Shown here in pieces: positions 3,323-28,905 of a DNA stretch of 32,000 nt. The notes beneath the pieces are model-generated. The model did no database searches. It worked only from the letters and a program-made list of their open reading frames with translations, and was not told the origin of the DNA. The stretch is taken from the NCBI GenBank assembly GCA_031316235.1, contig JALDRA010000001.1, positions 3,660,001-3,692,000 on the forward strand, written 5' to 3'. The position numbers were made by a program, and so were the translations under genes. Every line of letters begins with the position of its first letter. The stretch's first letter is position 1. The DNA is from Candidatus Scalindua sp. Its GTDB lineage: Bacteria; Planctomycetota; Brocadiia; Brocadiales; Scalinduaceae.

Positions 3323-3576
3323 AAGCTAACTGCTCACCTGCTTCCCACAAGTTTCAGGTTGGTATCTGATTTTGATTTGATTCCAGACCACAGGAGAGGG
3401 TTATTACAGCAAGCTGTACCGACATACTATTGCGTTCAAAGAGGCTATGTGGTAAAATAAAGGCGTTTTGAATCAATGGGATAGGCAGTTATCTGTACAA
3501 AATAATGTAGAAAAAAGCAACAATTCGTCTTTTTTTTTGCTTGATTACTGCATTGAGGCAAAATCAGAGAATTGAA

Positions 3577-3690
3577 GTATACTAAAACCGATTTGGTTTT
3601 CGGTTTTACTGGAAACCAAATCTTGGTGAAGGTACACTCGCTCAATTTTATCTCGGATTTTATCCGGAAACCATTATAAGATGAGCATAA
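3577..3690 (+). repeat. Intergenic structured repeat, copy A (module 1 + decayed module 2)
   Basis: GTATAC at 3577-3582. Module 1 carries a perfect 10-bp stem, GATTTGGTTT (3590-3599) pairing with AAACCAAATC (3613-3622). The central hexamer is degenerate (GTACAC 3632-3637) and the right end is degenerate (GCATAA 3685-3690). Homologous to copies B-E. Boundaries are approximate. Confidence 0.85.
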
Positions 3691-3962
3691 TCCATTCAAC
3701 AAAAATTTACACCTTTCAAGTTACCATTTTTCTATCACGGTAAAAAAATAGAACAGCTACTCTTAAATCATACCAGCTGTTTGACGTTAAAGTTTGAACG
3801 TAAAATCGATCTCGCATGACGATTCCTGATTACCTTGACATTGAAGGTAGCAGCCCTGTCCTTTGTATTGCATTATTGTGCACAGGTTAAATCCTGCGAC
3901 TACCTCCTTATGTCATCTCATCATATTATGGGGTTACACTACCGGGTTTATTTGAAACTTAT

Positions 3963-5777: not shown

Positions 5778-5887
5778 CCTGTCTGCATACTGACATTGAG
5801 CAAATATTTTCCCGGTTTATTATGTGAAGCCCGTCCAGCTGTTTACTCTCAGGCCGGAATATCTGATAAGGAGCGAAGTCAAGTTTT

Positions 5888-6706
5888 ATGTATAAAGAAT
5901 TCTATAACTTGCAAGAAAATCCATTTAACCTCACACCGGATCCTGATTTTCTCTATTCTAGCAAGGCACACCAGAAGGCTATAGCATATTTGACCTATGG
6001 GCTTGATACTCGAAAGGGAATTATACAACTTACCGGAGAAATAGGAAGTGGCAAAACTACTATCTTAAGATCTATTCTGGCTCAGAAAAAAAATAAACTG
6101 AAATATTCATTTATTGTAAACCCTCAGGCAACATTCGAACAGCTTCTGAGAATGATGCTTCAACAATTGTCTGTAATAGATGCTGAGATTAAGGATACGA
6201 AGGATGTTTTGTTGCATAAATTCCATAATTATCTCAAGGAGCAGTTGAAACAAAATTTACCTGTTGTTCTTATTTTTGATGAAGCGCAAAATATTGAGGT
6301 TCCGGTACTTGAAGAATTACGAATGCTGTCTAATCTTGAAACTGAAAAACAAAAACTTGTTCAGATTGTTTTCGTTGGGCAACCAGAGTTAAGAGAGATA
6401 TTTTCGTTGCCAATCCTGAGACAACTAAAACAAAGGGTAGCCGTGGCGTGTCATTTAACTGCCTTAAATAGAGAGGAAACGGAGGAATACATAAATCACA
6501 GACTGAAAATTGCAGGTGCAACCGGGTTGCCGGCCTTTACAAAACAAGCGTGTGATGAAATATATGCGTATTCAAATGGAATACCACGTCTTATAAACAT
6601 AGTTTGTGATGCTACTTTATTGGCTGGTTATGTTGAAGAAAAAAAGACAATGGATGAATGCATTGTGAAGGAAGTAATAAGCGGGTTGGAAGAAGATCTC
6701 ATATAA
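5888..6706 (+). CDS. ExeA-like AAA ATPase (secretion ATPase of PEP-CTERM/EPS loci)
   Basis: N-terminus FYNLQENPFNLTPDPDFLYSSKAHQKAIAYLTYGL is typical of ExeA/GspA-type ATPases. Walker A GEIGSGKT, Walker B VLIFDEAQ. Confidence 0.85.
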   Translation: MYKEFYNLQENPFNLTPDPDFLYSSKAHQKAIAYLTYGLDTRKGIIQLTGEIGSGKTTILRSILAQKKNKLKYSFIVNPQATFEQLLRMMLQQLSVIDAEIKDTKDVLLHKFHNYLKEQLKQNLPVVLIFDEAQNIEVPVLEELRMLSNLETEKQKLVQIVFVGQPELREIFSLPILRQLKQRVAVACHLTALNREETEEYINHRLKIAGATGLPAFTKQACDEIYAYSNGIPRLINIVCDATLLAGYVEEKKTMDECIVKEVISGLEEDLI

Positions 6707-6778
6707 GGCGTTGTGAAAAAAATCTCCCTTGTTTAATTTTCATTTTGAGTTGATAATACTATTTAGCGGGGTATAGAG

Positions 6779-7837
6779 ATGTCTAAAATTGAAGGTGCGT
6801 TAAAAAAAACTAAAAGTGAATTAAAAAAAAGAAGGGAGCATGAATCCACTGCATTTGCGGTAAGAGGGAAAAAGACAGAAAATGGCGATGGAATTCAAAG
6901 GCCAGAAAGAAATAACCAGCACTTGAAAGTCGATAGTGAGATGCCCGGGTGTGAAAACCCTATTACATTGGCTCTTGCGAAGAAAGGAAAGGAAAATCTC
7001 TCAAGGTACGACTCCTTATGCAGTCAGAGCCACCACGACACCATGTCTCAAGAGGCAGAAAATATCATTCAGCAAGCAAAACCAATGGAGTTGTCAAGGG
7101 AGGCATGTTCGTTCAATCCAAAATTAAGGATCAATGGTAACTATGTGGACGAACATATAGTATCATATTATGATTTTCTTGGAAAACAAACATGGGAAGG
7201 TCCGGTGATGGTTCATTTTAGACGATTGCAGTTGTCGCTGAAGAAAATGCTGAAAAATGTTGAAAGGAGCAAGGTGCTGATCATTGCAAGCGCAACTCAA
7301 AAGGAAGGGAAGAGTACCATAGCGCTGAATACTGCAATCACATTATGCAGCAACAATAATAAAATAGTCATCATTGACTGTGATCTTCGAAAACCTTCGA
7401 TCAACAGATTGCTTGGATTTAATCCAGACAAGGGTGTTTCTGATTATCTTCTTGAAGACCTTGAGCTGGAAGAGTGTTCTGCGAGTGGGCTAATGCCGGG
7501 ACTAACCATAATCCCGGCAGGTAACAGGCAGGTGAATGTCTGTGAGCTGCTGGCTTCAGATAAGATGGGACGTTTTATCTCTGATTTGAGAGAGCAGTTT
7601 GATTATGTGATTCTTGATACTCCACCAGTCCTTGCTTTTCCTGATACTGCTATCTTGGCTCCTCTATCAGACGGAATTGTTTTTGTTGTTAATCACAAAA
7701 CAACTAAGAAGAACCTTGCAAAACGAGCAATTGAAACTCTCCATGGATGCAGGGTAATTGGCTGCGTAATGAACAGAAGTGAGATATCAGTCTCTGAATA
7801 TTATGGGTACGGTTATGAATATGGAAGTAGTTCCTGA
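6779..7837 (+). CDS. BY-type protein tyrosine autokinase (CpsD/CapB-like, cytoplasmic)
   Basis: Walker A SATQKEGKST, Walker A' IIDCDLRKP, Walker B VILDTPP, and a C-terminal Tyr cluster EYYGYGYEYG. No TM segment, consistent with a split Wzz-plus-kinase arrangement. Confidence 0.85.
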   Translation: MSKIEGALKKTKSELKKRREHESTAFAVRGKKTENGDGIQRPERNNQHLKVDSEMPGCENPITLALAKKGKENLSRYDSLCSQSHHDTMSQEAENIIQQAKPMELSREACSFNPKLRINGNYVDEHIVSYYDFLGKQTWEGPVMVHFRRLQLSLKKMLKNVERSKVLIIASATQKEGKSTIALNTAITLCSNNNKIVIIDCDLRKPSINRLLGFNPDKGVSDYLLEDLELEECSASGLMPGLTIIPAGNRQVNVCELLASDKMGRFISDLREQFDYVILDTPPVLAFPDTAILAPLSDGIVFVVNHKTTKKNLAKRAIETLHGCRVIGCVMNRSEISVSEYYGYGYEYGSSS

Positions 7838-7896
7838 TACGTATCATTTGTCACCAGGTTATAAAATAATGAAATTTTTAAAGGAGTATGAATAGT

Positions 7897-9204
7897 ATGA
7901 ATATTTGTGTAATTGGAACTGGTTATGTCGGTCTTGTTACCGGTGCCTGCTTTGCAGAATTTGGTCTCAATGTTACATGTGTTGACAAGGATGAAAACAA
8001 GATAAAATATTTGAAGGCGGGAAAGTCTCCTATTTATGAGCCAGGTCTCGAAGAATTGATCCAAAGAAATACCAAGCAGGGCAGGCTTATGTTTACTACA
8101 AATGTTGAAGAAGGGGTGAAATCGGCACTTGTTGTCTTTATTGCTGTCGGGACACCCCCAAAGCAAAATGGTGAATCTGACTTAAAGTATATAAAGGAAG
8201 TAGCAAAACAGATAGCACATACAATGGATGGTTACAAAGTAATAGTGACCAAGAGCACGGTTCCTGTCGGTACTGGGAAAATGATTTCAGATATAGTAAA
8301 GAAAAACCAGAAATCTAAGGTAAATTTTGATATAGCCTCCAACCCTGAATTTCTCAGAGAGGGATCGGCAATCGAAGATTTTTTGAGGCCAAACAGGGTC
8401 GTTATCGGGACTTCCAGCGATCAGGCCGTCGCTATTCTAAAGGATTTGTATAGACCTCTTTATCTGATTGAATCACCGTTTGTTGTTACGAATATTGAAA
8501 CTGCAGAAATGATAAAGTATGCCTCAAATGCTTTTCTTGCGACAAAGATATCGTTTATAAATGAGATTGCGAATTTATGCGAAAGAGTGGGTGCAGATGT
8601 ACATATGGTTTCTAAGGGAATGGGTTTGGATAAAAGAATTGGGTCGAAATTTTTACATCCTGGTCCAGGTTTTGGCGGCTCCTGTTTTCCGAAAGACACG
8701 AGGGCTTTAGCACAGATAGCAAAGAATAATGGTTATGAATTAAAGATTGTCAATGCGGTAATGGAAGTAAATAAAGAACAGATAAACATTATGATAGAAA
8801 AGATAAAGAGTGCAATTGATAAATTTAAAGGTAAGACAATTGGCATCCTTGGCCTCTCCTTTAAACCAAATACAGACGATATCAGAGAATCTCCTGCAAT
8901 AGAGCTGATTAAAATCCTTGAGAAGCGAGGCTCTAAAATACGGGTATACGATCCTGTTGCGTTAGATAATACGAAAGAAATGTTAAGAAATAATAAAATA
9001 ACGTACTGTAAAGATTCATATGAAGTAGCAACAGGTGCAAACGTCCTGGTCATTGCTACTGAATGGAACCAATTTAGAATGCTTGACATGAAAAAAGTCA
9101 AGAAACTACTAAAAGATCCTGTTTTGGTAGATTTGAGGAATGTGTATGATCCTGTTTATATGAAGAACCTGGGATTTTCCTATTCATCAGTGGGGAGAGT
9201 CTGA
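7897..9204 (+). CDS. ugd: UDP-glucose 6-dehydrogenase
   Basis: Rossmann motif ICVIGTGYVGLV and catalytic GGSCFPKD, with full-length family architecture. AAGGAG (7881-7886) is better spaced for ATG 7897 than for ATG 7888, which the ORF track uses. Confidence 0.9.
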   Translation: MNICVIGTGYVGLVTGACFAEFGLNVTCVDKDENKIKYLKAGKSPIYEPGLEELIQRNTKQGRLMFTTNVEEGVKSALVVFIAVGTPPKQNGESDLKYIKEVAKQIAHTMDGYKVIVTKSTVPVGTGKMISDIVKKNQKSKVNFDIASNPEFLREGSAIEDFLRPNRVVIGTSSDQAVAILKDLYRPLYLIESPFVVTNIETAEMIKYASNAFLATKISFINEIANLCERVGADVHMVSKGMGLDKRIGSKFLHPGPGFGGSCFPKDTRALAQIAKNNGYELKIVNAVMEVNKEQINIMIEKIKSAIDKFKGKTIGILGLSFKPNTDDIRESPAIELIKILEKRGSKIRVYDPVALDNTKEMLRNNKITYCKDSYEVATGANVLVIATEWNQFRMLDMKKVKKLLKDPVLVDLRNVYDPVYMKNLGFSYSSVGRV

Positions 9205-9252
9205 TTCATTACCTTAGAATTTGATAATGTTGTTATGCTATAACATTGAACA

Positions 9253-9307
9253 TTACCCGCCTGTCATTCTGGATGACCACGAATTCGAGAATGGAGAAGG
9301 CGGGTAA
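9253..9307. terminator. Long imperfect hairpin in a convergent intergenic spacer (possible bidirectional terminator)
   Basis: Outer stem TTACCCGCC (9253-9261) pairs with GGCGGGTAA (9299-9307). Inner stem CATTCT (9265-9270) pairs with AGAATG (9288-9293). No clear U-tract on either side. Confidence 0.3.
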
Positions 9308-9572
9308 AAATTGCTGGTTGCTGTATGTGTCTTACCTTTGATTTTGAAAGGGACATGTACGGCAAAAACTTTATTATCGATTTGCAGCCGTCAAACAAAG
9401 AAAAGTCTGTCCTTGTGAAGAAGAGGCGGCGGCTCAGATGTCATAAAGGAGAACTGTACCACCAACTGTGATCTCAAATTTGCCTGTTTTCCCCTGAGAT
9501 GCATCAGTAAAAGACCAATCTGCATGATAGAATAAATTGCTGTCTAATAGGGACAGTGGAATGAATGTCTCT

Positions 9573-12500
9573 TTACAATGCCTGTGTACCTTTCTTATTG
9601 TTAGACTGGCTCAGCTTTATTTCTTCTATTATCAATTTTGCTTTCTCTGATTCAGGAAGTGTTCTGCCCATTTTGAGTACCCGCTCCATTTCTGTTAATG
9701 CCATCTGGTGTAATCCTTTTTTATAAAAAAGTGTTCCCAGATGAAACCGTATAATTGGGTTCCAGGGTGCAACTTTTACTGCGATTTTCAATTCGGTTAC
9801 AGCTTTTTCGTACTCTCCATTCAAATAATATAACCATCCAAGGGTATCAATGATTTCTGCATTTTCAGGTGCAAGGGTCTTTGCTTTCTTGGCGAGTATC
9901 AAGGCATCATCTAATTTGTTCTGCATTTTTGTAGCATATAACCATGCAAGATTGTTGTAGGCTACCGGGGAAGAAGGATTCAATTCAATGACTTTTTTGT
10001 AAGCATTGACTGCATCTGTCAGTGAGCTTCTTAACTCCTGTAATACACCCAAATTCAGATAAGAACTCACATGAAGTGGATTCATTTCTACCACTTTCTT
10101 ATACTGAATTACTGCCTCCTCAGTTTGTCCATTACGATAATAGATATCTGCTAGTTTGTTGTAGGTGTCTGTTGATTGAGGATTCAATTCTAAGATTTTG
10201 TTGCAGGTTTTTATTGCTTGAACATTTTCTCCCATTTCGAATAATATATCTGCCTGGGCATCGTATGCAATAGTATTCGAAGGGATGATCTTTGCTAGCT
10301 CTTGGTATTCTCCAAGAGCAGGGCTGAGCCATTGAATATTGGTGAAAGCTATGGCACGGCCCAGATGGTAGACAACGGATTTTTCCAATTCCATATTGTG
10401 TTTGCAAAGCTCAATGAGATCAAGAAAGCTGCTTTTTAGTGAGTTGTTCAGTTTTGGTATGTCCTGCAGACAAACGCCCGCGCTCTCATGCTCACTCCGT
10501 GAGAGAAAGATGTTTACCATGCATACGTTCGAAATGATACTGTTTGGTTCTATAGTTAACGCCTGAGAACAAGCGTTTCTGGCATTTTCATATTCTCCCA
10601 GCAAAAGATGAGCAATTGCCAGATTGCACCAAAACTGAGCATTGTCGGGAAAATATTCTACTGCTTGTTTGTATAGAGCAATAGATTCCCGGTAGTTACC
10701 ATTATGAATATGAAGGACTCCAAGATTGTATGCTTCTATGAAATATTTATTATTATGTAATGCAACTTTCAGTTGGTTTAATGCCTCTGGTATATTTTCA
10801 TTAAGCAAATAAGTCCGTGCAAGTAAGGAGAGCGCTAGCAGGTTCCTGGGTTCGAGATATAACGCTTTCTTGATCATATCGCCAGCCAATTCAAACTTTT
10901 TTACCGCCAGATAACTTTTTGTTAATGCAATGTATGTCTCAACGTTATCAGGATGAGTTTTGAGAATGTTGTTAAATTCTTCTATTGCCGCTTGATGATT
11001 TCCCATCAGGTAATAGGAATTTCCTAGACCTATATGTGCTTCAAGAGTGTTGGGATTAATATTCAACACAGTCTGGTAAAGGATGTTTGCAATATTGGTT
11101 TGGTTTCGTTTCAAGGTTACTTCAGCGAGAGCAAGGTATGCAGGGATGAAATCAGCATTTACAGCTATTATTTTGTTAAATTCTGTTTCTGCTTTCCTTA
11201 ACAATCCTTTCTTCAGGAAAGCCAGCCCCAATATATTGCGGAGCTGCGTGTTTGAGGGATTTTCTTCTAATTCCATCTTGCAGTACCCAATACATTTATC
11301 GAGATCTCCTTGTTCGAACAGCACCCGGGCATTATTCAGCATCTGTGCAAATGAACCGTTATTACTTTGAGAAGTTTCTGGAAACTCGTTCTTATTCATT
11401 TTGAACTTCTCATATGCAAGGCTAACTGTTCCCAGCAAATTGTGTGCAACGGGATTTTCAGGATCGATCTCTACAGCTTTTTCAATTATATTTTTTGCTT
11501 TTTCTGAAAAACCCTGTTTGAGTAAAAGGGTTGCAAGGTTTAAACGTGCATGGACTGAGTTGTCATCCCTGCTGATGATATCTTTGAAGATTGAGATAGC
11601 TTCATGTTGTCTGTCAGCCAAAATGTAAGCCTCTCCCAAACCGTTATAAGACGAAATAAATTCAGGTCTCTGGTTTATGATATCTGTATACACCTTGATA
11701 GCTTCTTCCTTTTGATTTGAGGAGATATAGATACTGGCCAGGATTAGTTTTGGTATGAGGTTATCTGGAAGTAATGTTGCTGCTTTTCTACACTCTGCAA
11801 CAGAATGATGAAGAAAACCCTCTTGTTTAGCAATGATTGCTTTATTAAGTGCTAAGGTGACCTGTTTACCATTTTCAATATTCTGTTGACACAGCTCTAT
11901 GAAATCGAGATACTCTTTTTTTACATCTGATGTAAGTGACACGGAAGATTCTATGAGATTTTCAGCTTTAATTTTCTTGCCGCTTGATGCGTACAAATTT
12001 GTCATGATAATTTTCAAATCAGGTATATCTCCATTGAGATCAAGAGATTTCTTACCATACAAAATAGATGAGGTTCCTTTGTTCTCCTGTTGATAAGCAA
12101 CCGCAAAATATGCATGTAATAACGCGTTAGCCGGATCAAGATTTATTGCCTTATTGAATAAATTAAGAGATTTCTTGGTTTCACCTTGCAGCAAATATAA
12201 ACTCGCTAATTTGTAGGCGGGGAGATAATTTGGGTCTGATTCGATTGTCTCTTTAAGAATTGTTTCTGTTTTATCACTATCGTCTTTATAGGCGTAGAGA
12301 TCAGCCAGGAGCATTCTTGCTTCTAAATTATCCTGATTTATTGAATGAAGTGTTTCTAATGTTTTTATGGCTTCTGGATTATCCTCATTAAGGATGCAGA
12401 CTTTTGCTAAATTTATATATGCATTTACTGAGTATTTATCTAATTCAATGACCTTCTTAAATTGCATGGCACCTTTCTCTATTTCACCTTTTCTAATGTG

Positions 12501-13952
12501 TGCCATACCAAGGATATCATATGCTTTTGCCGTATTGGGGTCTTTTTTTATAATCGCTTCACACTGTTTGATGCATTTGTCGAGTTCGCCGGTTGAAAGA
12601 GTTAAATATGCCAAATTGATATCACCAAGAGATGGGTTCAGTTCAACAATTTTCCTGAAGTATTTTTCAGCAGATTTATAATCATGCATTTTAATATATG
12701 TAGAACCAATAATTTGCATGGCATCTACATTGTCAGGATACATCTCTAAAATTTGTTTGCCAATTTTAAGTGTTTCATTATTTGAACCCTCACGAGCAAA
12801 CAGTCTTGCAAGTCCTATTTGTGCTGGAAGGTACTTTGAATCATTGGTTACAGATGATTTAAATGCCGTCTTTGCTTCTTCGTATCTGCCTTTTTCTGCT
12901 AAAGCAAGAGCGAGATAATAATGTGTTTCCGGTAAAGTGGGGAGTTTTAATGCTGACTCCTGTAATAAAGCGATTGCTTCTCTATAATTCTTCTTTTTTA
13001 GAAATACGTATCCTTTAACAAAATAGATGATAGGAGGTATGTTATCCGAAGAACTTAACTTAATTGAGTGTTCCGCCTCAATCAATGCACTATCATATTG
13101 TGCTGTTTTCAAGAAGAGAACTGACAACTGAATGTGAGCATCCAAATAATCTGGTTTTTGCTCCACTATTTGTTTTAAACAATCAATGGCCGCAACAAAT
13201 CTGTCCTGATATTCATAAATTCTGGATAGAAGAAGTTGGATTTCAATATGTTCAATGTCTGTATGAGACAAGGCCCGTTTACACTGAATTTCCGCTAAAT
13301 CAAAGTTTCCATTTTGTACGTATAATCTGGCAAGAGCAATATGTGTATCGATGTTTAAATCATCGATCTTAAGTGCATCTTGAAAATCTTTTACTGCGAG
13401 GTCGTGAAAACCAAGTTCCAGGTGTATCTTGGCCAATAAGGAATAAGGTTGGGAAAGAGCCGGATTCGTTCTTATCAACGTTTTGCACGTTTCTTCAGCC
13501 AATGACAACTTATCGAGTACTAATGCTTCATCTTTACCAAGTTTTCGAAGTTCAATTGCAGTGGTCAAATATATAACTCCAAGCTGAAGACTGGCATCTG
13601 TAAAGTCTGGTTTGTTATTGAGAGCAAATTTCAATTCTGACTCAGCATGTTCATATTTTTTCAATCTGAAGTATGAAATTCCCATATGATAATGAATATT
13701 GGCATCTTCGGGATTTTTGATCAGCTCCTTTTTAAATTCTTCTAGAGCTTCGGTATGTCTATGTAATTTTGCATAAATAAGACCTTTTTCCAGACCCTCT
13801 TGGCCCGGAATACGGTCCTTTACAAGGAAAATAACGATTGCCAATAATGTGCATGCTACAATAAGAAGGGGTGTGGCAGCATAGAGTACCCAGAATTTCC
13901 ACCGTTTTGTAGTATTTTTGGTCTTATTTATTGAAAAATCCATACCAACCAA
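9573..13952 (-). CDS. Giant tetratricopeptide-repeat (TPR) protein, N-terminally membrane-anchored or lipidated (PrsT-like?)
   Basis: 1459-aa ORF with TPR-type A/Y/L periodicity throughout. The N-terminus has a basic stretch followed by hydrophobic FWVLYAATPLLIVACTLLAIVIFLV, which contains a lipobox-like IVAC. An alternative start is Met4 (13943). Confidence 0.85.
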   Translation of the reverse strand: MVGMDFSINKTKNTTKRWKFWVLYAATPLLIVACTLLAIVIFLVKDRIPGQEGLEKGLIYAKLHRHTEALEEFKKELIKNPEDANIHYHMGISYFRLKKYEHAESELKFALNNKPDFTDASLQLGVIYLTTAIELRKLGKDEALVLDKLSLAEETCKTLIRTNPALSQPYSLLAKIHLELGFHDLAVKDFQDALKIDDLNIDTHIALARLYVQNGNFDLAEIQCKRALSHTDIEHIEIQLLLSRIYEYQDRFVAAIDCLKQIVEQKPDYLDAHIQLSVLFLKTAQYDSALIEAEHSIKLSSSDNIPPIIYFVKGYVFLKKKNYREAIALLQESALKLPTLPETHYYLALALAEKGRYEEAKTAFKSSVTNDSKYLPAQIGLARLFAREGSNNETLKIGKQILEMYPDNVDAMQIIGSTYIKMHDYKSAEKYFRKIVELNPSLGDINLAYLTLSTGELDKCIKQCEAIIKKDPNTAKAYDILGMAHIRKGEIEKGAMQFKKVIELDKYSVNAYINLAKVCILNEDNPEAIKTLETLHSINQDNLEARMLLADLYAYKDDSDKTETILKETIESDPNYLPAYKLASLYLLQGETKKSLNLFNKAINLDPANALLHAYFAVAYQQENKGTSSILYGKKSLDLNGDIPDLKIIMTNLYASSGKKIKAENLIESSVSLTSDVKKEYLDFIELCQQNIENGKQVTLALNKAIIAKQEGFLHHSVAECRKAATLLPDNLIPKLILASIYISSNQKEEAIKVYTDIINQRPEFISSYNGLGEAYILADRQHEAISIFKDIISRDDNSVHARLNLATLLLKQGFSEKAKNIIEKAVEIDPENPVAHNLLGTVSLAYEKFKMNKNEFPETSQSNNGSFAQMLNNARVLFEQGDLDKCIGYCKMELEENPSNTQLRNILGLAFLKKGLLRKAETEFNKIIAVNADFIPAYLALAEVTLKRNQTNIANILYQTVLNINPNTLEAHIGLGNSYYLMGNHQAAIEEFNNILKTHPDNVETYIALTKSYLAVKKFELAGDMIKKALYLEPRNLLALSLLARTYLLNENIPEALNQLKVALHNNKYFIEAYNLGVLHIHNGNYRESIALYKQAVEYFPDNAQFWCNLAIAHLLLGEYENARNACSQALTIEPNSIISNVCMVNIFLSRSEHESAGVCLQDIPKLNNSLKSSFLDLIELCKHNMELEKSVVYHLGRAIAFTNIQWLSPALGEYQELAKIIPSNTIAYDAQADILFEMGENVQAIKTCNKILELNPQSTDTYNKLADIYYRNGQTEEAVIQYKKVVEMNPLHVSSYLNLGVLQELRSSLTDAVNAYKKVIELNPSSPVAYNNLAWLYATKMQNKLDDALILAKKAKTLAPENAEIIDTLGWLYYLNGEYEKAVTELKIAVKVAPWNPIIRFHLGTLFYKKGLHQMALTEMERVLKMGRTLPESEKAKLIIEEIKLSQSNNKKGTQAL

Positions 13953-14287
13953 AGCTCCTTTCCAGCATTGTAGCTATTTATTTGCGATGAAACTTTTCCA
14001 TTCGAAACAGTCACAATGCAATTACCTTCCTGTTTACCCAGAATAGTAAACGAAGAGATACCAGATTCATCTTCTGTACCTTCAATAGGTGTTCCGTTTG
14101 TATTTATAACAAAGGCATCTGCGTAACCAGTTTCACTCAGATCGAGAAGCAAGTTGATGGGGCTTACAATAAGCTGGAGATCATCAGAGACGGTAACAGT
14201 GTCAATTTCTTCCTGATCAGCAAATACCGTGGTGCAGAGGGCAATTATTCCAAAATGAATGAAGCTTATTGCTAGATTTTTAAACAT
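13928..14287 (-). CDS. Small secreted protein with Ig-like (Big_2-like) segment
   Basis: Starting at ATG 14287 gives a classical signal peptide, MFKNLAISFIHFGIIALCTTVFA/DQ. The segment GISSFTILGKQEGNCIVTVSNGKVSSQI resembles bacterial Ig-like domains. Overlaps the TPR gene start by 25 nt. The ORF track starts at 14335. Confidence 0.45.
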   Translation of the reverse strand: MFKNLAISFIHFGIIALCTTVFADQEEIDTVTVSDDLQLIVSPINLLLDLSETGYADAFVINTNGTPIEGTEDESGISSFTILGKQEGNCIVTVSNGKVSSQINSYNAGKELWLVWIFQ

Positions 14288-14771
14288 TTGATAAGTCAAA
14301 AATGCTGAAAATTGTTTAATTAAAGTATCTGCCATATTACACTTGGATGGCTCTATATTCAGCTGACTATGGTGAATTCAATGTACTTATCGTCATAAAT
14401 TCCTGCAAATTTAATGAAGAATTACTGATTTGAATTACACGATATTGAACAGGTAACAGCTGCTTGAAAACGTTCTCTCCCTGAACAGGCAAAGAGAATC
14501 AACAAAATTATTGGAGATATTTACTGCAATTGTATATAATGCCGGGACACGCCTGAACCATTCGGACAGGTAGCGGTCATACCGGTGCAGCCTGACCTTG
14601 GTAATGGATGCATTGGAATGTGTTACGAAGCTGGGGATTCCTGCACGAAAAGCATACAGGATAATTGAAGAACGATTCAGTATTCCTGGTCGAGATACCA
14701 GGGGGAACAATAGGGTGCGTATGCCAGAGCCCGGTATGGGGTCTGGCAGATTCTCAGTGATTTTTCTGAAA

Positions 14772-14869
14772 GTGATACTGTTATTTTTAAACCGCTTTGG
14801 TTTTAGATTCTTCTACAAACCAAAGCCTGGTTTCCGGTAAAACCGAAAACCAAATCGGTTTTAGTATAC
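14772..14869. repeat. Intergenic structured repeat, copy B (head-to-head composite of two module-1 variants)
   Basis: The left half (+) resembles copy E module 1 and has a perfect stem, GCTTTGGTTT (14794-14803) pairing with AAACCAAAGC (14817-14826). The right half (14829-14869) is the reverse complement of copy A module 1, 40/41 identical, ending in GTATAC (14864-14869). Confidence 0.8.
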
Positions 14870-14893
14870 AGAAAAACAGTTCTTGGGGAATAT

Positions 14894-15571
14894 ATGTTGT
14901 CTCATGTTTTTAGAAGAATGAAACTCTGCATTATTGGTTTTCTTGGGTCAACTCTTCTCAGATTTTTATTTAGTACGATTCGGATTGAGGAACGGCCTTA
15001 TAACCATCCCAAGCAGCAAAAAGAGCAAGGGAGGAGGGTGATTTATGCCGTATGGCATCCATTTATTCTGATACCCGGTTTTGCTTCAAGAAATCTGGGA
15101 GTAATGGTATTGATAAGCCAGCATTCTGATGGTGAATACATTGCACAGGTTATTCAGTGGCTGGGCTATTGTGTGGTCAGAGGTTCTACTACTCGGGGTG
15201 GTCCGAGAGCAATGTTATCCATCATCAAGAGAGCAAGAGAGTGGGAGATCCTGGCAATTACACCCGATGGTCCAAAGGGGCCGGTATATAAAGCACAATC
15301 GGGAATAATCTATTTGGGACAAAAAACTGGTTATCCGATAATTCCGATGTCAATTTGGAGTTCAAAGTATTGGACTCTTCCGAGTTGGGATAAATTTCGT
15401 ATTCCAAAACCGTTTTCTAAGGCTACTATTAATTATGGAAAACCGATAAAAATACCTCCTAAACTTACGAAAGATGAGATAGAAAAGTATCGTATATTGT
15501 TAGAAAAAACACTTAACGAAATGACAAGAGAGGCAGGCCACTTAGTTAAAGCACCTGGAAAATTCGCATGA
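14894..15571 (+). CDS. DUF374 domain protein (lysophospholipid acyltransferase-like)
   Basis: YAVWHPFILIPG...LISQHSDGEYIAQV...RGSTTRGG...ITPDGPKGP matches the conserved DUF374 blocks. There is an N-terminal hydrophobic segment. Confidence 0.8.
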   Translation: MLSHVFRRMKLCIIGFLGSTLLRFLFSTIRIEERPYNHPKQQKEQGRRVIYAVWHPFILIPGFASRNLGVMVLISQHSDGEYIAQVIQWLGYCVVRGSTTRGGPRAMLSIIKRAREWEILAITPDGPKGPVYKAQSGIIYLGQKTGYPIIPMSIWSSKYWTLPSWDKFRIPKPFSKATINYGKPIKIPPKLTKDEIEKYRILLEKTLNEMTREAGHLVKAPGKFA

Positions 15572-17360
15572 TGTCATTTTTTGTCGCATAAATAACGAGG
15601 GACAGTATTAAGGCTAAACCTATATAATTGGCGATAACAAGAGTTCTCTCACTGACAGGTGAACCTTTAATCTTTTCAATTCCAATGAACAGGAGATGCC
15701 CTCCATCCAAAACCGGGACGGGCAGAATATTTAGAACGGCAAGATTGATACTGATGATAGCGAGGAAATACACTAGTTTCCCGATGCCGGATTTTGCAGA
15801 TTCATAAGAAGCCTGTGCAATGAGCACAGGGCCTCCAAGTGCTTTTGTTGACAATTTCTGGGAAACAAATCCCTGCAGAGTTAAATAAATTCTCTTGATA
15901 TTTATTATTGCTTTCTGGGTGCCAACCACGCACGACAGTAACAGGCCGTATTTTCGTGTTATCTTCTTCTCTTTTAATCTTATTCCCATCCGTCCCTGAG
16001 CACTTTCTTCGCTTTTAATCGGAATAATCTGTTCTACCATTTTTTCATTACCGCGTGTCCATGCAATCTCCATTTGCTCGCCCTTACTTGCTGCAATAAC
16101 CTGTAACAGATCTTCCCATCTCGTCATCGCCTCACCATTGAGTGACACGATTTTGTCTCCCGGCTTAATACCTGCTTTTTCTGATGGAAAGCCTTCTACC
16201 GTAGCATCAACTGTGAGTCCGTAGCTTGGGGTAAACCCTTCCAGAAATTCCTGGACAGTTTCTTCACCTGATTTGTTGAACTCAATCAACTTGGTGCTGT
16301 GACTTCTGATTATCTCCAACTCAATTTTTCCATCAGGCAGACTTGTTATGGTATTCACGAATTCTGAGTACCCTGCAACAGATTGTGAATTTACTTTAAC
16401 GATTTCATCACCTTTGTTGAGTCCAATAGAATTTGCCAGACAATCATACTTTATGCTATCAATCTTTAATGTTGTGCAGGAAAGACCGATCATCCACCTG
16501 GTGTCAACTGATGGCGTAATCTTCAGGTCAAGTTTTCTGTCGTCACGTAAAACCGATAGAACCAGTTCTTTTCCCGGGTTTGAACGTTCAAGTTCTCTGA
16601 ATTCATTTTCTGTTGAAATACCTGTACCATTAACCGCAATTATGGTGTCCCCAATTTCCAAGCCGGCTTCTTGAGCCGGTGCATCTGAATCCCCAAATGA
16701 AAAAATCTTACCTACTTCCAGACTGGTTGCTGGAGCGATTCCAATGCGCTGAATACCAAGTGTTGGATCAAATCTGGGGATAATACGTACATCTTGTATC
16801 TTCCCGTCTCTTTCCAGTTCTACATTGAGACCTTCAGAAGAATTATTGAGAGCAATAGAGACAAAGACATCCTCAAAATCAGGATTAGAGATATTATTTA
16901 CCCTGGTGATTTTGTCTCCAGGTAGAATACCTGCCTCCCAGGCAGGCCATCCCGGTATGACCTGACCTATTTCTGATGTAACAAAAGGTACCCCTATCCG
17001 GAAAGCGATGATAAAGGCGACAAAGGCAAAGATTGTATTACAGGTGACACCGGCGACGAGTACGGCGGCACGCTGTCCAGGTCTCTTGGATGAAAATTCC
17101 CCTTCATCACCGGTACACGATTCATCTTTTTGCTCACCGGCAAGTTTAACGTATCCCCCCAGAGGAAAGAGAGAAAGTCGGTAGTCTGTCTCTCCTATTT
17201 TTTTCCTCAGTATGGCTGGACCAAATCCCAATGAAAATGCGAGAACCCGTACACCAATTTTTTTTGCTACCAAAAAATGACCAAGTTCATGAACAAAAAT
17301 GAGTAGCCCTATCCCAGCGATTACTAAAATAACATTAGTTGATATACCTATAAAAGGCAT
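15546..17360 (-). CDS. rseP: RIP site-2 zinc metalloprotease RseP (M50) with four PDZ-like segments
   Basis: HELGHF (HExxH) at the N-terminus and NILPVPVLDGGHL near the C-terminus. Four GDxIxxVN-type PDZ motifs: GDKITRVNN, GDTIIAVNG, GDEIVKVNS, GDKIVSLNG. Confidence 0.9.
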   Translation of the reverse strand: MPFIGISTNVILVIAGIGLLIFVHELGHFLVAKKIGVRVLAFSLGFGPAILRKKIGETDYRLSLFPLGGYVKLAGEQKDESCTGDEGEFSSKRPGQRAAVLVAGVTCNTIFAFVAFIIAFRIGVPFVTSEIGQVIPGWPAWEAGILPGDKITRVNNISNPDFEDVFVSIALNNSSEGLNVELERDGKIQDVRIIPRFDPTLGIQRIGIAPATSLEVGKIFSFGDSDAPAQEAGLEIGDTIIAVNGTGISTENEFRELERSNPGKELVLSVLRDDRKLDLKITPSVDTRWMIGLSCTTLKIDSIKYDCLANSIGLNKGDEIVKVNSQSVAGYSEFVNTITSLPDGKIELEIIRSHSTKLIEFNKSGEETVQEFLEGFTPSYGLTVDATVEGFPSEKAGIKPGDKIVSLNGEAMTRWEDLLQVIAASKGEQMEIAWTRGNEKMVEQIIPIKSEESAQGRMGIRLKEKKITRKYGLLLSCVVGTQKAIINIKRIYLTLQGFVSQKLSTKALGGPVLIAQASYESAKSGIGKLVYFLAIISINLAVLNILPVPVLDGGHLLFIGIEKIKGSPVSERTLVIANYIGLALILSLVIYATKNDIMRIFQVL

Positions 17361-18496
17361 TTTTTTGTCTCCTTACGTGCATAATCATCAGCAAGCATGA
17401 TATCTTTCATATCAGGGTCTTGGATAAAGGTATGTTTCTGCATAACCTTATCGACCAGTGTTGCGATATCTGTAAATTTAATTTTTCTGTCTAGAAACGC
17501 CTGAACGGCTATCTCATTAGCAGCATTGAGCGTAACGCCGGAGGTGCCACCTTTTTCCGCTGCTTCATATCCTAATTTTAACGCTGGGAATTTATCCATA
17601 TCAGGTTTCAAGAATGTGAGATTTGCAAGTTTGGCAAGATCAAGATTTTCAACATTACCGTTCTCCCTGTGAGGATAAGTTAATGCAAACTGGATCGGTA
17701 CTTTCATACTCGGTAGACCCATCTGGGCAATAACAGAACCATCACAAAATTCAACAAGTGAATGTATAATTGATTCGGGGTGTATGATAACGTCGATCTG
17801 TGTTGTCTCTAGATCGAAAAGCCATTTTGCCTCAATAATTTCTAATGCTTTGTTCATCAATGTGGCAGAATCTATTGTTATTTTCTGTCCCATTTTCCAG
17901 GTTGGATGCTTAAGGGCCTCTTCTAAGGTAACCTCGGAGAGATTTTCTTTGGGATAATTACAAAATGGGCCTCCGGAAGCAGTAATGATAACTCTTTTTA
18001 CCTCATTTGGTTTTCCGGCCATCAGGGCTTGGAATATTGCACTATGCTCACTGTCTACGGGAAGGATTTGCACACCTTTCTCTTTTGCCATCGACATAAT
18101 CAGGTTTCCAGCCATAACCAGCGCCTCTTTGTTTGCAAGTGCCAATGTCTTGCCCGTTCTGATTACTTCAATAGCTGCTGGGAGACCCGCTGCACCAACA
18201 ATTGCAGAAATAACAATGTCTGCATCTTCTTGTGAGATTATTTCACATACACTCTCTTTGCCTTTACGGATATGAACAGACTTTTCAGACACTTTTTTTT
18301 GTAAATCACCCAACCACTTTTCCTCGACAAGAGAAACGCTTCTTGGTTTAAATTCATTAATCTGCTCCGCCAAGATATCCCAGCGGGAGTTTGCAGACAA
18401 ACCTACAACCTTAAATTGATGGCGAAGATTCCTTATAACTTCCAAGGCACTTGTTCCTACTGAACCGGTTGATCCCAGAATAATCACATTTTTCAT
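17348..18496 (-). CDS. dxr: 1-deoxy-D-xylulose 5-phosphate reductoisomerase
   Basis: ILGSTGSVGTSALEV NADPH-binding N-terminus, LPVDSEHSAIFQ motif, full length. Overlaps the rseP start by 13 nt. Confidence 0.95.
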   Translation of the reverse strand: MKNVIILGSTGSVGTSALEVIRNLRHQFKVVGLSANSRWDILAEQINEFKPRSVSLVEEKWLGDLQKKVSEKSVHIRKGKESVCEIISQEDADIVISAIVGAAGLPAAIEVIRTGKTLALANKEALVMAGNLIMSMAKEKGVQILPVDSEHSAIFQALMAGKPNEVKRVIITASGGPFCNYPKENLSEVTLEEALKHPTWKMGQKITIDSATLMNKALEIIEAKWLFDLETTQIDVIIHPESIIHSLVEFCDGSVIAQMGLPSMKVPIQFALTYPHRENGNVENLDLAKLANLTFLKPDMDKFPALKLGYEAAEKGGTSGVTLNAANEIAVQAFLDRKIKFTDIATLVDKVMQKHTFIQDPDMKDIMLADDYARKETKKCLL

Positions 18497-18514: not shown

Positions 18515-19570
18515 TTATGACTGTAAAGACTCTATCTCTTCAAGCAGTGTGGAAACCATCTCGCTTTCAGGAATTTTTCGTATTTTTTCTCCTTTTCGAA
18601 ACAGAAAACCAAACCCGTTTCCTCCAGCAATCCCGATATCTGCGTCCATTGCCTCTCCCGGACCATTAACAACGCAACCCATAACGGCAATTTGCATAGA
18701 TTGCTTATTTGATGGAAGACGTCTTTTTACTTCGTCAACAATCTTCACGAGATCTATTTCACAACGTCCACACGTAGGACATGATAGAATTTCAGCTTGG
18801 TTACTTTTCGCCAGACCGATGGCCCTCAATATCTTATATCCATCTATTACTTCTTGATGCGGAGAGCCTGTGTATGATACTCTTAGCGTATCACCAATCC
18901 CTTCTGAAAGAAGTCCTCCAATGCCAACTGCTGATTTTATGACGGCGTCTTCAGGAGCGCCTGCAGCTGTTACACCGAGATGCAAAGGATAATCACATTG
19001 CCCCGCTATAGATCGATATGCCTGCATGGTCTTTTGGACATCCGATGCCTTCAGAGAAATTATAATATCTTTAAAGCCTAATGATTCAAAATGTTCACAA
19101 TATCGTAATGTTGTATTAACCATTAATTCGACCAGATCTGCCCCCTCTTCTCTCTGGTCTCTGATTGAACCTGAATTAACACCTATTCGAATAGGTGTTC
19201 GTTTCTTTTTTGCCAAACGCACAATTTCTTCCAGCTTATCCTTTTTTTTCATATTTCCAGGGTTGATCCGTATTTTATCAACTCCCTGATTAATTGCTTC
19301 CAGGGCAAGATTGTGTCCAAAATGGATATCTGCAACTAGTGGAATATGGATCCTCTTTTTTATTTCTCCCAGGCACTTGACCGCTTTGATATCTGGTACG
19401 GCAACCCTTATAATATGGCATTTGAGGGTCTCTAATTCATGGATCTGATGTACGGTTGATTCGATATTGTCTGTATGAGTCTTTGCCATTGATTGAATAG
19501 AGACAGGAGCATTTGCACCGATTTCTACTGAACCAACGGAGACTAATCTTGATTTGCGGCGTGTTATCAC
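18515..19570 (-). CDS. ispG: 4-hydroxy-3-methylbut-2-en-1-yl diphosphate synthase (IspG/GcpE)
   Basis: RRKSRLVSVGSVEIGANAPVSIQSM N-terminal block, CPTCGRC cluster motif and GCVVNGPGE. The longest ORF uses TTG 19660 and adds 30 non-conserved residues. GTG 19570 gives a canonical N-terminus. The start remains uncertain. Confidence 0.9.
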   Translation of the reverse strand: MITRRKSRLVSVGSVEIGANAPVSIQSMAKTHTDNIESTVHQIHELETLKCHIIRVAVPDIKAVKCLGEIKKRIHIPLVADIHFGHNLALEAINQGVDKIRINPGNMKKKDKLEEIVRLAKKKRTPIRIGVNSGSIRDQREEGADLVELMVNTTLRYCEHFESLGFKDIIISLKASDVQKTMQAYRSIAGQCDYPLHLGVTAAGAPEDAVIKSAVGIGGLLSEGIGDTLRVSYTGSPHQEVIDGYKILRAIGLAKSNQAEILSCPTCGRCEIDLVKIVDEVKRRLPSNKQSMQIAVMGCVVNGPGEAMDADIGIAGGNGFGFLFRKGEKIRKIPESEMVSTLLEEIESLQS

Positions 19571-19755
19571 GTATTCAAAAACCCTTAAAAGGACTATTCC
19601 GAGAAAATACAAAGATTTACGATTAACGATTATATAGTGCAGATGGTTCCAGTCAAACAAAAATATTTACTGAATTTATTATAACAGTGAGAGATTCTTC
19701 CTCAAGAGATAACAATACAAAAACACTTGACACTTTTGGATCGGTATTTATGATA

Positions 19756-20018
19756 ATATACTGAAAGCGTTTTGGTTTTAGATTTTTCTGAAACCAGAGC
19801 CTGGTTGCTGGTATCCCCGGACAAAAACGCCGAGAACTTTACTCGCTCCGGTTTTTCCCGGATTTTTCCGAAAACCATTGCGGAGTTGAGGAGCAACATT
19901 GAAAATGGATGTCTGTTCAAACTCCTTGTTCGCCCCGTCTGTGGCGGCACAAACCGTTGTTCCTCAACTCCGCATTCGCACCGCCGCAGGCGGGGCGAAT
20001 ATTATGATTAGTATATAC
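19756..20018 (+). repeat. Intergenic structured repeat, copy E (long variant with two extra modules)
   Basis: Left end ATATAC (19756-19761). Module-1 stem GTTTTGGTTT (19769-19778) pairs with AAACCAGAGC (19791-19800). The central hexamer is split by a 26-nt insert (19815-19840). A diverged module 2 is followed by an additional GC-rich module of about 118 nt. Right end GTATATAC (20011-20018). Confidence 0.8.
19880..19997 (+). other. GC-rich module with two interleaved long inverted repeats (candidate structured RNA or switch), nested in copy E
   Basis: Stem 1 pairs 19880-19897 with 19956-19973 (18 bp, one G-T). Stem 2 pairs 19931-19947 with 19981-19997 (17 bp, two G-T). The arms are interleaved in the order S1-5', S2-5', S1-3', S2-3'. 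All non-Watson-Crick positions are G-U compatible on the + strand only. Confidence 0.45.
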
Positions 20019-20078
20019 AGATGAATAATTCAGTACTCTGACAGATTTTAATTTTATCAAACAGATTGGAGAAATGTA

Positions 20079-21419
20079 TTGGCTGCACACAGAATTGATA
20101 CCCCTGTTGAAGCTTCAGCTGGAAGTTCCCAATTGCAGGCAGAGGGTGCATCAAGACAGAAAAGGGAACAGAAAAATAAACCGTGGATGAATCCTACTCG
20201 GTTCAGGTGGATTTCTCAGATCATTTTTATGATTGTTGTAATATATATAGGATGTCAGTTCTATTTTTTTGTACGTTACTGTGAAAGTGGTGGTACCACC
20301 ACTTTTTTTTCAAGGCCACCAGGGATAGAGGCCTTTTTACCCATAGGTGCCTTTATGAGTCTCAAGTATTTCTTAGGGATGGGGAAAGTTGATCCTGTAC
20401 ATCCTGCGGGTTTTATAATCTTTGCCTCGATATTACTTACATCATTCATGTTTCAAAGGGGTTTCTGCAGCTGGATATGTCCGGTAGGCACCATATCTGA
20501 ATGGGCATGGAGATTGGGAGATCGGATAAAATCAAAATTCAATAAGACCGTCAGGTATTGGATCGAGATGTTTCCGGTTAAACTCACATGCGGTTTAAGC
20601 ATGATAACAACTCCTATCATCATATTGATGATCCTTGAAGTTATCAGCTTCAGCTCTTTCAAATCTCTTTACATCACCTCTCACACTTTATTTTATGTCA
20701 TGATCTCTTTTATGGGTATAGCCCTGATCGCACCCTTTGCTCTTCCAAGGAAACTATGGCCGGCCCGCCTTGAAGATTCTATTGCACGAGCCTGGAAATA
20801 TTCTATTTTCGCTTTTTTCGCAGTCTCTATTTTAATCAAGATACCGGCAAAACAGCTTGAGGCTATCTTTACTCGTGCACCATACATGAAGGTTGCAGAG
20901 GTTATGATGTTAAATTTTTTCCGTAACCTTTCACTGCTTGCCATAATCGTCTTGTCACTACTTTTTCTCTTTACTCTATTCAATAAGAATTACTGGTGCC
21001 GTTATTTTTGTCCTTATGGTGCAATCGTCGGTGTCCTGGGGTGGGCGAGTTCTTTTAGAATTGTAAGAGACAGTAAATTGTGTATAGATTGTGGTAAGTG
21101 TACAAAGGCGTGTCCTGTTTTTATTGAGGTTGACAAGAAGCGGACTGTATATAGCCAGGAGTGTTGGGCCTGTTACGACTGCGTTGAGGTATGTCCGGTA
21201 AGCGGTGCTCTTGATATGAAGATTGTGGGGATTGGTAAGAAGGTGCACTATGCTGTTTACGCAGCTCTTTCAGTTGGGTTATTCGTTATTTTTATGAATA
21301 CGGCACGTTTTACCGGATATTGGTATAATAGTGTAACGTTAGACGAATACATGTACCGGATTTCCGAAATCGATGACCCGAAGTATAAACATAAGCAGGG
21401 GAAATTTGAAATTGAATAA
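20079..21419 (+). CDS. Integral-membrane polyferredoxin (NapH/MauN/NosH-like, 2x CX3CP + 2x [4Fe-4S] motifs)
   Basis: CSWICPVG and CRYFCPYG motifs, several TM helices, and C-terminal CIDCGKCTKACP and CWACYDCVEVCP. TTG 20079 lies 7 nt after GGAG (20068-20071). An alternative start is ATG 20187. Confidence 0.8.
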   Translation: MAAHRIDTPVEASAGSSQLQAEGASRQKREQKNKPWMNPTRFRWISQIIFMIVVIYIGCQFYFFVRYCESGGTTTFFSRPPGIEAFLPIGAFMSLKYFLGMGKVDPVHPAGFIIFASILLTSFMFQRGFCSWICPVGTISEWAWRLGDRIKSKFNKTVRYWIEMFPVKLTCGLSMITTPIIILMILEVISFSSFKSLYITSHTLFYVMISFMGIALIAPFALPRKLWPARLEDSIARAWKYSIFAFFAVSILIKIPAKQLEAIFTRAPYMKVAEVMMLNFFRNLSLLAIIVLSLLFLFTLFNKNYWCRYFCPYGAIVGVLGWASSFRIVRDSKLCIDCGKCTKACPVFIEVDKKRTVYSQECWACYDCVEVCPVSGALDMKIVGIGKKVHYAVYAALSVGLFVIFMNTARFTGYWYNSVTLDEYMYRISEIDDPKYKHKQGKFEIE

Positions 21420-27293: not shown

Positions 27294-27295
27294 GA

Positions 27296-27435
27296 GTATA
27301 CTCATCTCATACTGGATTTCGGATAAAATCCGAGATAAAATTGAGCGAGTAAAGTCCTCGGCGCTTTTTGTCCGGGGATACCTTCACCAGGATTTGGTTT
27401 CCGGTAAAACCAAAAACCAAATCGGTTTTCGTATA
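27296..27435 (-). repeat. Intergenic structured repeat, copy C (full length, with 27-nt insert) between exbB and exbD
   Basis: GTATAC at 27296-27301. Module 2 (27296-27350) is 55/55 identical to copy D in inverted orientation. A 27-nt insert (27351-27377) splits the central GTATAC. Module 1 carries the stem 27391-27400 pairing with 27414-27423. The end is GTATA (27431-27435). Confidence 0.9.
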
Positions 27436-27549
27436 ATTCTTTTTCGTTTCACACGAAAGAGTGATTTTTGACCATACGAGGTAAGAAGATGGCACGCGAG
27501 AGTATTTTCTATAAAAAATATTAGTTTAACCCTTTTACATGGAATTAAT

Positions 27550-28825: not shown

Positions 28826-28905
28826 ATATACCAAATCTTGGTGAAGGTATACTCGCTCAATTTTATCTCGGATTTTATCCGAAATCCAGTATGAGATGAG
28901 TATAC
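28826..28905 (+). repeat. Intergenic structured repeat, copy D (module 1 internally deleted, module 2 intact)
   Basis: ATATAC (28826-28831), then CAAATCTTGGTGAAG, GTATAC (28847-28852), module 2, and GTATAC (28900-28905). Identical to the reverse complement of copy C over 12 + 55 nt. Confidence 0.9.

Follow-up and report, generated by a model that had tools for sequence, protein, structure and literature searches.

The leader of a gene for a NapH-like polyferredoxin in Candidatus Scalindua sp. contains a GC-rich module in which two long stems interleave, raising the question of whether this structure was built to control the gene or came to the site from elsewhere. We analyzed a 32,000-nucleotide stretch of this genome, referred to here as the window (positions 3,660,001 to 3,692,000 of contig JALDRA010000001.1, GenBank assembly GCA_031316235.1; all window coordinates count from its first letter), in which the polyferredoxin gene occupies 20079 to 21419 on the + strand and encodes Pfam Fer4_5 and Fer4 domains. 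An earlier note on the same DNA had proposed that the module forms a pseudoknot or two-state switch dedicated to this gene. We conclude instead that the module is very probably a stray integron cassette that lacks a gene, that comes from the Scalinduaceae cassette pool, and that now lies outside any integron. The structure is real, but the module is not a purpose-built RNA switch, a reading for which we found no support.

The module as one cassette of a complete integron

The extra DNA in the polyferredoxin leader spans 121 nt (19879 to 19999), not the approximately 118 nt of the earlier note, and, as that note had recognized, it interrupts one copy of a dispersed repeat. On the minus strand, which corresponds to the top strand of the cassette, it reads TTCGCCCCGCC...CTCAACTCCGCA and contains no open reading frame (ORF). 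The coordinates and sequences of both stems were as noted earlier, and an unbiased inverted-repeat search extended each stem to 19 nt. Stem 1 pairs 19879 to 19897 with 19956 to 19974 (95% complementary), while stem 2 pairs 19929 to 19947 with 19981 to 19999 (89% complementary). The segment is also GC rich as described, with a GC fraction of 0.545 (19800 to 19999) compared to 0.30 to 0.43 alongside and 0.394 for the whole window. Neither the module nor its motifs recurs elsewhere in the window.

A pattern scan of representative genomes identified homologues of the module in Scalinduaceae metagenome-assembled genomes (MAGs; loci L012 and L011, the latter degenerate), Scalindua sp. SCAELEC01 (L017 and L019), S. 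rubra (L018), a RIFCSP Planctomycetes MAG (L021), and a MAG labelled Desulfobacteraceae (L005). A metagenome scan with one stem arm returned 85 loci, of which five were true relatives (L109, L099, and L105, plus L061 and L096 from the same organism as L021), and a viral scan gave two chance hits only. Identity to the window copy was 95.8% for L012, 90.4% for L021, 88.4% for L018, 87.7% for L019, 87.6% for L109, and 81.8% for L005, so that at least five other genomes or MAGs carry copies at 82 to 96% identity, located at unrelated loci, with one to three copies detected per genome. The flanks differ for every copy, and similarity among copies stops exactly at window positions 19879 and 19999. 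In all seven complete copies outside the window, a G precedes the module and its end reads CTCCGC(A/G)|TT. In nearly all of the other copies, the end matching 19879 is separated by 8 to 50 nt from the start of a gene that points away from the module, such that the strand facing the nearest gene is the opposite of the one facing the polyferredoxin gene here, and the genes adjoining these copies are mutually unrelated.

Most genome hits of the pattern scan were rejected because they were low-complexity palindromes of the GGAGTTGAGG type, unrelated to the module, in the genomes of Haliscomenobacter, Saprospiraceae, and Prevotella (L002 to L004, L006 to L010, L013 to L016, L020, and L022 to L027). 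Such heptamer-run palindromes are common in Haliscomenobacter, Saprospiraceae, and Prevotellaceae and share only an 11-nt seed with the module. The L005 copy lies on contig JAUWOH010000077.1 of a Desulfobacteraceae bin (GC 0.40), beside an IS110 transposase and defence-type genes. This copy is 82 to 84% identical to those of Scalindua, and its presence in that bin reflects either horizontal cassette transfer or a binning error.

At L012, nine small co-oriented genes are separated by integron-like intergenic sites such as GGCTAAC...G|TTGGCC. In the extension of this locus, L120, a 439-aa tyrosine recombinase matches the integron integrase model TIGR02249 over its full length (390.8 bits; cut-off, 265), and this intI is transcribed divergently from an array of at least 17 co-oriented cassettes that begins at an attI site ending ...ACTATAGAATAACTTG|TTAGGC (AACTTG|TTAGGC). 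The module occupies 17218 to 17338 of L120, aligned in register and co-oriented with the other cassettes, and is bounded by G|TTCGCC and CTCCGCG|TT. Thus, the module is one cassette of a complete integron, and its edges are crossover points. The attC sites neighboring it in the array are canonical (GCCTAAC...G|TTATAT and GGCTAAC...G|TTGGCC) when judged by the pattern RYYYAAC...G|TTRRRY. In four neighboring cassettes, the first bases complement the R'' box of the same cassette at seven of seven positions: TTAGGC/GCCTAAC in cassette 1, TTATAT/ATATAAC in cassette 2 and in the cassette encoding a 121-aa protein, and TTCTGCC/GGCAGAAC in that encoding a 108-aa protein. These matches were counted only when anchored at ORF ends, as a blanket search is too noisy in AT-rich DNA. 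The same rule was seen in L018 (TTATAT/ATATAAC, with an attC ending G|TTGAAC) and L105 (TTAGCT/AGCTAAC). The L120 integron (5683 to 18400, Scalinduaceae MAG CBDCUS010000013.1) is complete and of the sedentary type, with DUF3800, T5orf172, and deaminase genes among its cassettes, several attC families in one array, and an IS66 transposase at the array end.

Other loci place parts of the module in the same kind of context. In L105, the module is split: the half corresponding to 19879 to 19930 follows two different ORF-carrying gene units, with the same 55- to 60-nt attC sequence standing behind the ORF-carrying cassettes both times, and the GC hairpin described below is found alone upstream of a third gene unit. 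Contig L099 is cut at one end, where the 3' part of the attC site lies ahead of a gene start. In S. rubra (L018), the order is attI, then cassettes, then the module; extension of this locus via a neighboring protein yielded nothing beyond a 2.4-kb contig and an unrelated locus. An AT-rich unit that stands beside the copies in L105, L018, and L021 belongs to the attI family; its interpretation as a promoter cassette or an inverted attC was rejected, since L120 shows attI beside intI.

A natural empty site can be reconstructed in SCAELEC01, where the L017 copy splits a dihydroxyacetone kinase gene (dak, with Dak1 and Dak2 domains; L017 2 to 1245). In silico removal of the 119 nt from 908 to 1026 (TTCGCC...CTCCGCA) joins ...GGCAKGDKTM to LDALYPVYD... 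in frame and extends the Dak2 match from profile positions 2 to 100 of 174 (69 bits) to 2 to 172 of 174 (139 bits). The deletion restores both the reading frame and the full Dak2 domain, and therefore what inserted corresponds exactly to the predicted cassette. The dak target was G|TT, with no target duplication.

Anatomy and folding of the cassette

In its minus-strand order, the module reads TTCGCCCCGCCTGCGGCGG (the R' side), a cargo, CCGCCACAGACGGGGCGAAC (an extended R''), AA, L'', a variable terminal part, L', and GCA. The probable attC recombination site takes up approximately 56 nt (19934 to 19879, minus strand) and, by inspection, appears to follow the published attC scheme, in which R boxes, unpaired spacers, L boxes (one base of which is extrahelical), and a terminal structure that varies succeed one another over a total of 57 to 141 nt (PMC4889954). 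On this layout, R'' is GGCGAAC (19934 to 19928), the spacer is AA (19927 to 19926), the L'' box is GGAGTTTGA (19925 to 19917; GGAGTT(T)GA with one bulged base), the variable terminal part spans 19916 to 19890, the L' box is TCAACTCC (19889 to 19882), and the final GCA (19881 to 19879) runs up to the crossover. The 8-bp L box is fully paired in four of eight copies and paired at six of its eight positions in the other four, and most copies carry a small terminal hairpin, CAACATT..AATGTTG. The attC core of approximately 56 nt in the linear form would comprise approximately 95 nt in a circle. The site presumably resembles the 59-base element of aadA1, a likeness that we took as a lead and not as evidence.

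Both stems can be read in terms of this anatomy. The cassette start, TTCGCC..., pairs with ...GGCGAA over 19 nt, and this pairing is stem 2: its 3' arm (19981 to 19999) holds the first cassette bases on the R' side, complementary to the cassette's own R'', and its 5' arm (19929 to 19947) is the extended R'' side of attC. The 5' arm of stem 1 (19879 to 19897) contains, on the minus strand, L' and the 3' side of attC, while its 3' arm (19956 to 19974) is an inverted copy of that 3' side and belongs to the non-attC cargo. The cassette consists of an attC site of approximately 56 nt and approximately 65 nt of inverted copies of this site's own ends.

Folding and the inverted-repeat search bore out the earlier proposal that the stems interleave and belong to competing folds. 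The predicted RNA folds have minimum energies of -62.2 kcal/mol on the + strand (z score, -6.81) and -62.5 kcal/mol on the minus strand (z score, -6.60), and none of 200 shuffled sequences was as good in either case. The minimum-energy fold combines stem 1 with a local GC hairpin and leaves stem 2 unused. This hairpin (19975 to 19999, TTCGC-A-CCGCC-GCA-GGCGG-G-GCGAA; 19974 to 19985 with 19989 to 20000 in the inverted-repeat search) competes with stem 2 and is present in the minimum-energy folds of both strands, as RNA and as DNA. When the module was permuted as in a circle, its most stable predicted DNA fold, stem 1 stacked with the GC hairpin, had an energy of -42.1 kcal/mol, compared to -37.5 kcal/mol for the linear form. 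Among eight aligned copies, pairing was kept in 96.7% of cells for stem 1, which shows one compensatory change at its outermost pair, in 94.7% of cells for stem 2, and in 98.8% of cells for the GC hairpin. Both pairings are kept within the family. The covariation tests did not exceed shuffled alignments, a result without power at 82 to 96% identity. Two competing folds do exist in these predictions, as folds of a recombination substrate.

We also examined the three non-Watson-Crick positions, all of which are G.T on the + strand, as previously described. The earlier note had taken this asymmetry as a sign of an RNA read toward the polyferredoxin gene. It can be explained otherwise, because the window + strand is the cassette bottom strand, which adopts a folded single-stranded DNA form in integron recombination (PMC8876359; bioRxiv 10.1101/2022.09.11.507474). 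Across the copies, the non-Watson-Crick cells of stem 2 on the window + strand comprise 10 G.T and 2 A.C, or about 5 and 2, respectively, when counted as independent events. This bias is a hint that the module may recombine via its folded bottom strand.

Two other GC-rich mini-cassettes without genes, different in sequence and alike in layout, were observed at L012 1165 to 1345 (about 16623 to 16803 of L120; fold, -87.7 kcal/mol; z score, -7.7) and at L005 5430 to 5590, the latter being the unit downstream of the L005 module copy. Each opens with a GTTCG...CGAA hairpin, includes a long arm that pairs with the 3' end of the attC site as well as R''-AAC|AA(A/G), and ends in ...CGCA|TT. Their differing sequences suggest that it is the mini-cassette architecture itself that is maintained.

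Several observations weigh against the identification as a cassette. The R'' box, GGCGAAC, retains the AAC and deviates from a strict RYYYAAC, and the base preceding the crossover is an A in most copies, with a G in L012 and L005. The preferred fold, stem 1 with the GC hairpin, is not the canonical attC fold, and given this preference, the cassette may recombine poorly or in a nonstandard way. Sequence variation in the family is too small for covariation to support or reject either stem. The match of start to R'' extends to only three of seven positions in the L120 cassette encoding a 186-aa protein. At the window junctions (A|TTCGCC and CTCCGCA|AT, given for the cassette strand), the target was A|AT and not the GWT reported for IntI1. 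We also found no intI or attI near the site in the 32-kb window, and the syntenic locus of a relative (L115) has no integrase either. The assignment of the attC site accordingly appeals to anatomy and context and is best regarded as a probable one.

The polyferredoxin leader as an insertion site

The module is a nested insertion in copy E of the dispersed repeat, an intergenic element of approximately 120 to 150 nt with GTATAC-like ends and internal palindromes. The left part of copy E spans 19757 to 19878 on the + strand and its right end, TATTATGATTAGTATATAC, spans 20000 to 20019, matching the ends of the uninterrupted copies at 3673 to 3692 and 27294 to 27312. Uninterrupted copies read ...CCATTATAAGATGAG... 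or ...CCAGTATGAGATGAG..., while the copy at 19757 reads ...CCAT[121 nt]TATTATGATTAG.... The other copies in the window lie at 3576 to 3692, 14782 to 14869, 27294 to 27439, and 28830 to 28905, and sequences 77 to 94% identical occur at L017 3325 to 3434, L115 4844 to 4953, and L116 3414 to 3612; the window copy near 14782 seems orthologous with that of L115. The repeat matched no Rfam family, and we found nothing specific in the literature on Scalindua repeats, miniature inverted-repeat transposable elements (MITEs), or integrons. Within copy E, and thus within the presumed polyferredoxin leader, there is a terminator-like hairpin on the + strand (19847 to 19872; TCCGGTTTTTCCCGGA followed by TTTTTCC).

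A sigma-70-type promoter faces the polyferredoxin gene at 19727 to 19754, with 11 of 12 matches. Its TTGACA (19727 to 19732), the -35 box, is that of the earlier note, but TATGAT (19749 to 19754), at a spacing of 16 nt, is a better partner than the GATAAT proposed there. Three relatives that carry polyferredoxin orthologues in synteny with dxr-ispG, L115, L116, and L117 (88, 80, and 69% identical, respectively), share this -35 box and its spacing. The ispG/polyferredoxin spacers of these relatives are 250, 263, and 464 nt long, compared to approximately 508 nt in the window. When aligned, the spacers retain the TTGACA promoter and a 21-nt motif. The module is absent from the orthologous leaders of all three relatives in this alignment and is therefore not a conserved control element of the polyferredoxin gene; the host repeat is absent from the spacer of the two closest relatives, L115 and L116. 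Given the conserved promoter, the module, which ends approximately 80 nt upstream of the polyferredoxin start codon, probably does lie in the mRNA leader, so this part of the earlier proposal stands.

Other features of this region were noted. In L117, an independent insertion of approximately 210 nt (about 4790 to 5000) immediately follows the -10 box, at the position equivalent to that of the insertion in the window, which suggests that the polyferredoxin leader is a hot spot for insertions; the alignment assigned to it a weak similarity with the 5' arm of the module. The 21-nt motif, CAGTCAAACAAAAATATTTAC (19650 to 19670), located in the spacer between the divergent ispG and polyferredoxin genes, does not vary among four genomes and has a partial duplicate in L116; it is a candidate operator or regulator-binding site. 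The mechanical call of the ispG ORF (18515 to 19660; 381 aa from a TTG codon at 19660) probably begins too far upstream: its orthologues have 348 to 351 aa, which would put the true start near 19570. Promoter-like sites were also seen on the minus strand at 19656 to 19629 and 19705 to 19678. The window genes near the site (rseP, dxr, ispG [GcpE], polyferredoxin, PIG-L, and Band_7) are core genes.

With no intI in the window, the module is therefore a lone attC site, a cassette at a nonclassical genomic location. We propose that an integron integrase, a Scalinduaceae IntI, excised the module as a small circle and that the circle inserted here in an attG-type event, yielding a single attC site lacking an integron integrase (SALIN). 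Stem 2 would then be the R'/R'' complementarity of the cassette, stretched to 19 bp, which closes the attC hairpin in the circle. Linear reinsertion would put the start arm beyond the cargo, where its pairing crosses stem 1, and would therefore give the module the look of a pseudoknot. While the cassette is circular, a long palindrome across the junction would arise from the stacking of stem 1 and the GC hairpin, in competition with the attC fold. Once in the leader, the cassette bottom strand is probably transcribed into the polyferredoxin mRNA as a by-product, and any effect of the cassette on expression would be a side effect.

Alternative readings and related elements

An extension of the cassette identification is that the module is a self-propagating minimal cassette, an integron parasite comparable to the MITEs that exploit transposases. 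We regard this as possible but tentative. It would account for an attC site made palindromic, with crossover-like sites on both strands, that is near-identical across Scalinduaceae, and for repeated insertions outside integrons, in the SCAELEC01 gene, in the 5' leader here, and in the degenerate L011 copy.

A somewhat less likely alternative is that the cassette is functional without encoding a protein, its cargo being a small RNA (sRNA), a promoter, or an RNA-processing site, with the window copy a displaced instance. Promoter or sRNA activity has been documented for some ORF-less cassettes (PMC8876359; PMC6557892; bioRxiv 10.1101/2023.11.21.568050), the module is 82 to 96% identical across species whose core proteins are 69 to 88% identical, and the two other mini-cassettes repeat its layout in different sequence. 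Against this, no convincing sigma-70-like hexamer pair was apparent in the module by eye, with no formal scan of that strand, and the G.T bias favors the bottom strand, which is not transcribed in arrays.

It is improbable that the module is a miniature element moved by a transposase (a MITE, a REPIN, or a derivative of the insertion sequences [IS] IS91 or IS200/IS605) that tends to land in cassette arrays. The module is dispersed, strongly structured, GC rich, and palindromic, as such an element might be, and an IS91-family element does lie approximately 0.9 kb from the S. rubra copy. But the module lacks terminal inverted repeats, its ends being TTCGCC... and ...CTCCGCA, the dak insertion produced no target duplication, the one to three copies detected per genome are few, the ends coincide with integron crossover points in register and co-oriented with cassettes beside intI and attI, and IS91 adjoins only 1 of approximately 10 loci. 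REP/RAYT elements and the rolling-circle origins of IS200/IS605 and IS91 were rejected on the same grounds of ends, register, and context. The module is essentially part of a mobile element, an outcome that the earlier note had allowed for in the form of a known IS terminus, but the element is an integron cassette and not such a terminus. The S. rubra IS91-family element itself (L018 2370 to 4417) sits immediately behind the cassette that follows the module and comprises a Y2 transposase (432 bits) and a tyrosine recombinase of 280 aa; the latter has no integron-integrase insert and scores 220.8 bits with TIGR02249, under the cut-off of 265. The junction motif GAAC|AAG resembles the IS91 targets, GAAC/CAAG.

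The weakest alternative, a cis-acting RNA pseudoknot or two-state switch controlling the polyferredoxin gene, is very improbable: although the module follows a conserved promoter, sits close to the start codon, has a very stable RNA fold, and tolerates G.T positions on the + strand, three related genomes have the same leader without it, its other copies interrupt a gene or adjoin unrelated genes with their orientation reversed, the two strands fold with similar stability, it is nested in another mobile repeat, and an Rfam search returned nothing at the gathering threshold and only weak microRNA-like hairpin matches at the E-value threshold.

The identification as a stray cassette also places the module among known elements. 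Both the presence of integrons in Planctomycetes and a catalogue of single attC sites have been published (PMC4889954). ORF-less cassettes are documented as well (PMC8876359, section 2.4.3; PMC6557892; bioRxiv 10.1101/2023.11.21.568050), and like those of Treponema from oral metagenomes, those without genes in Vibrionaceae superintegrons, and the Xanthomonas sRNA cassettes, the module is bounded by crossovers, has a probable attC site at its 3' end and no reading frame, and is found (in L120) in a co-oriented array beside intI and attI. Unlike them, it is far smaller (119 to 121 nt), consists almost entirely of attC and inverted attC parts, is conserved across several species, also outside integrons, and is known here from its sequence alone.

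SALINs and integrase-driven attG insertion, with a GWT consensus and often near promoters, have been demonstrated (bioRxiv 10.1101/2022.09.11.507474). The module resembles these in standing alone in core DNA with no nearby intI or other attC, in its precise junctions without target duplication, both in a gene (L017) and, in the window, in another repeat, in its position just downstream of a resident promoter, and in the L017 target, G|TT. It differs in that SALINs are defined there as a coding sequence plus attC and the module has no coding sequence, in the A|AT target of the window, and in its host, an uncultured anammox planctomycete as opposed to the E. coli or Vibrio of that study. As in the conserved, species-specific attC families of sedentary chromosomal integrons, such as the Vibrio cholerae repeats, the attC site of the module recurs behind different cassettes (L105, L099, and L120) and across related species, but unlike those repeats, its observed copy number is low and several unrelated attC families occupy a single array. 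Finally, the module is like REPIN and MITE repeats in being short, GC rich, strongly folding, and dispersed between genes, with one copy nested in a repeat, but it has no terminal inverted repeats, target duplication, or GTAG head, and its boundaries and context are those of a cassette. What is less ordinary in the module is its tiny size, its self-mirroring design, its conservation across species, and its repeated occurrence outside integrons.

These findings replace a candidate riboswitch-like RNA with a concrete identity. They provide a natural example, from an anammox bacterium, of an integron cassette that lies outside an integron, at a genomic site beside a promoter, and of a cassette without a gene, both of which have been described only recently in model organisms. 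The interleaved stems offer a useful diagnostic, as a cassette that is excised as a circle and reinserted in linear form would always pair its first bases across its own attC site. If the module is indeed a self-propagating minimal cassette, then integrons would have miniature hitch-hikers of their own.

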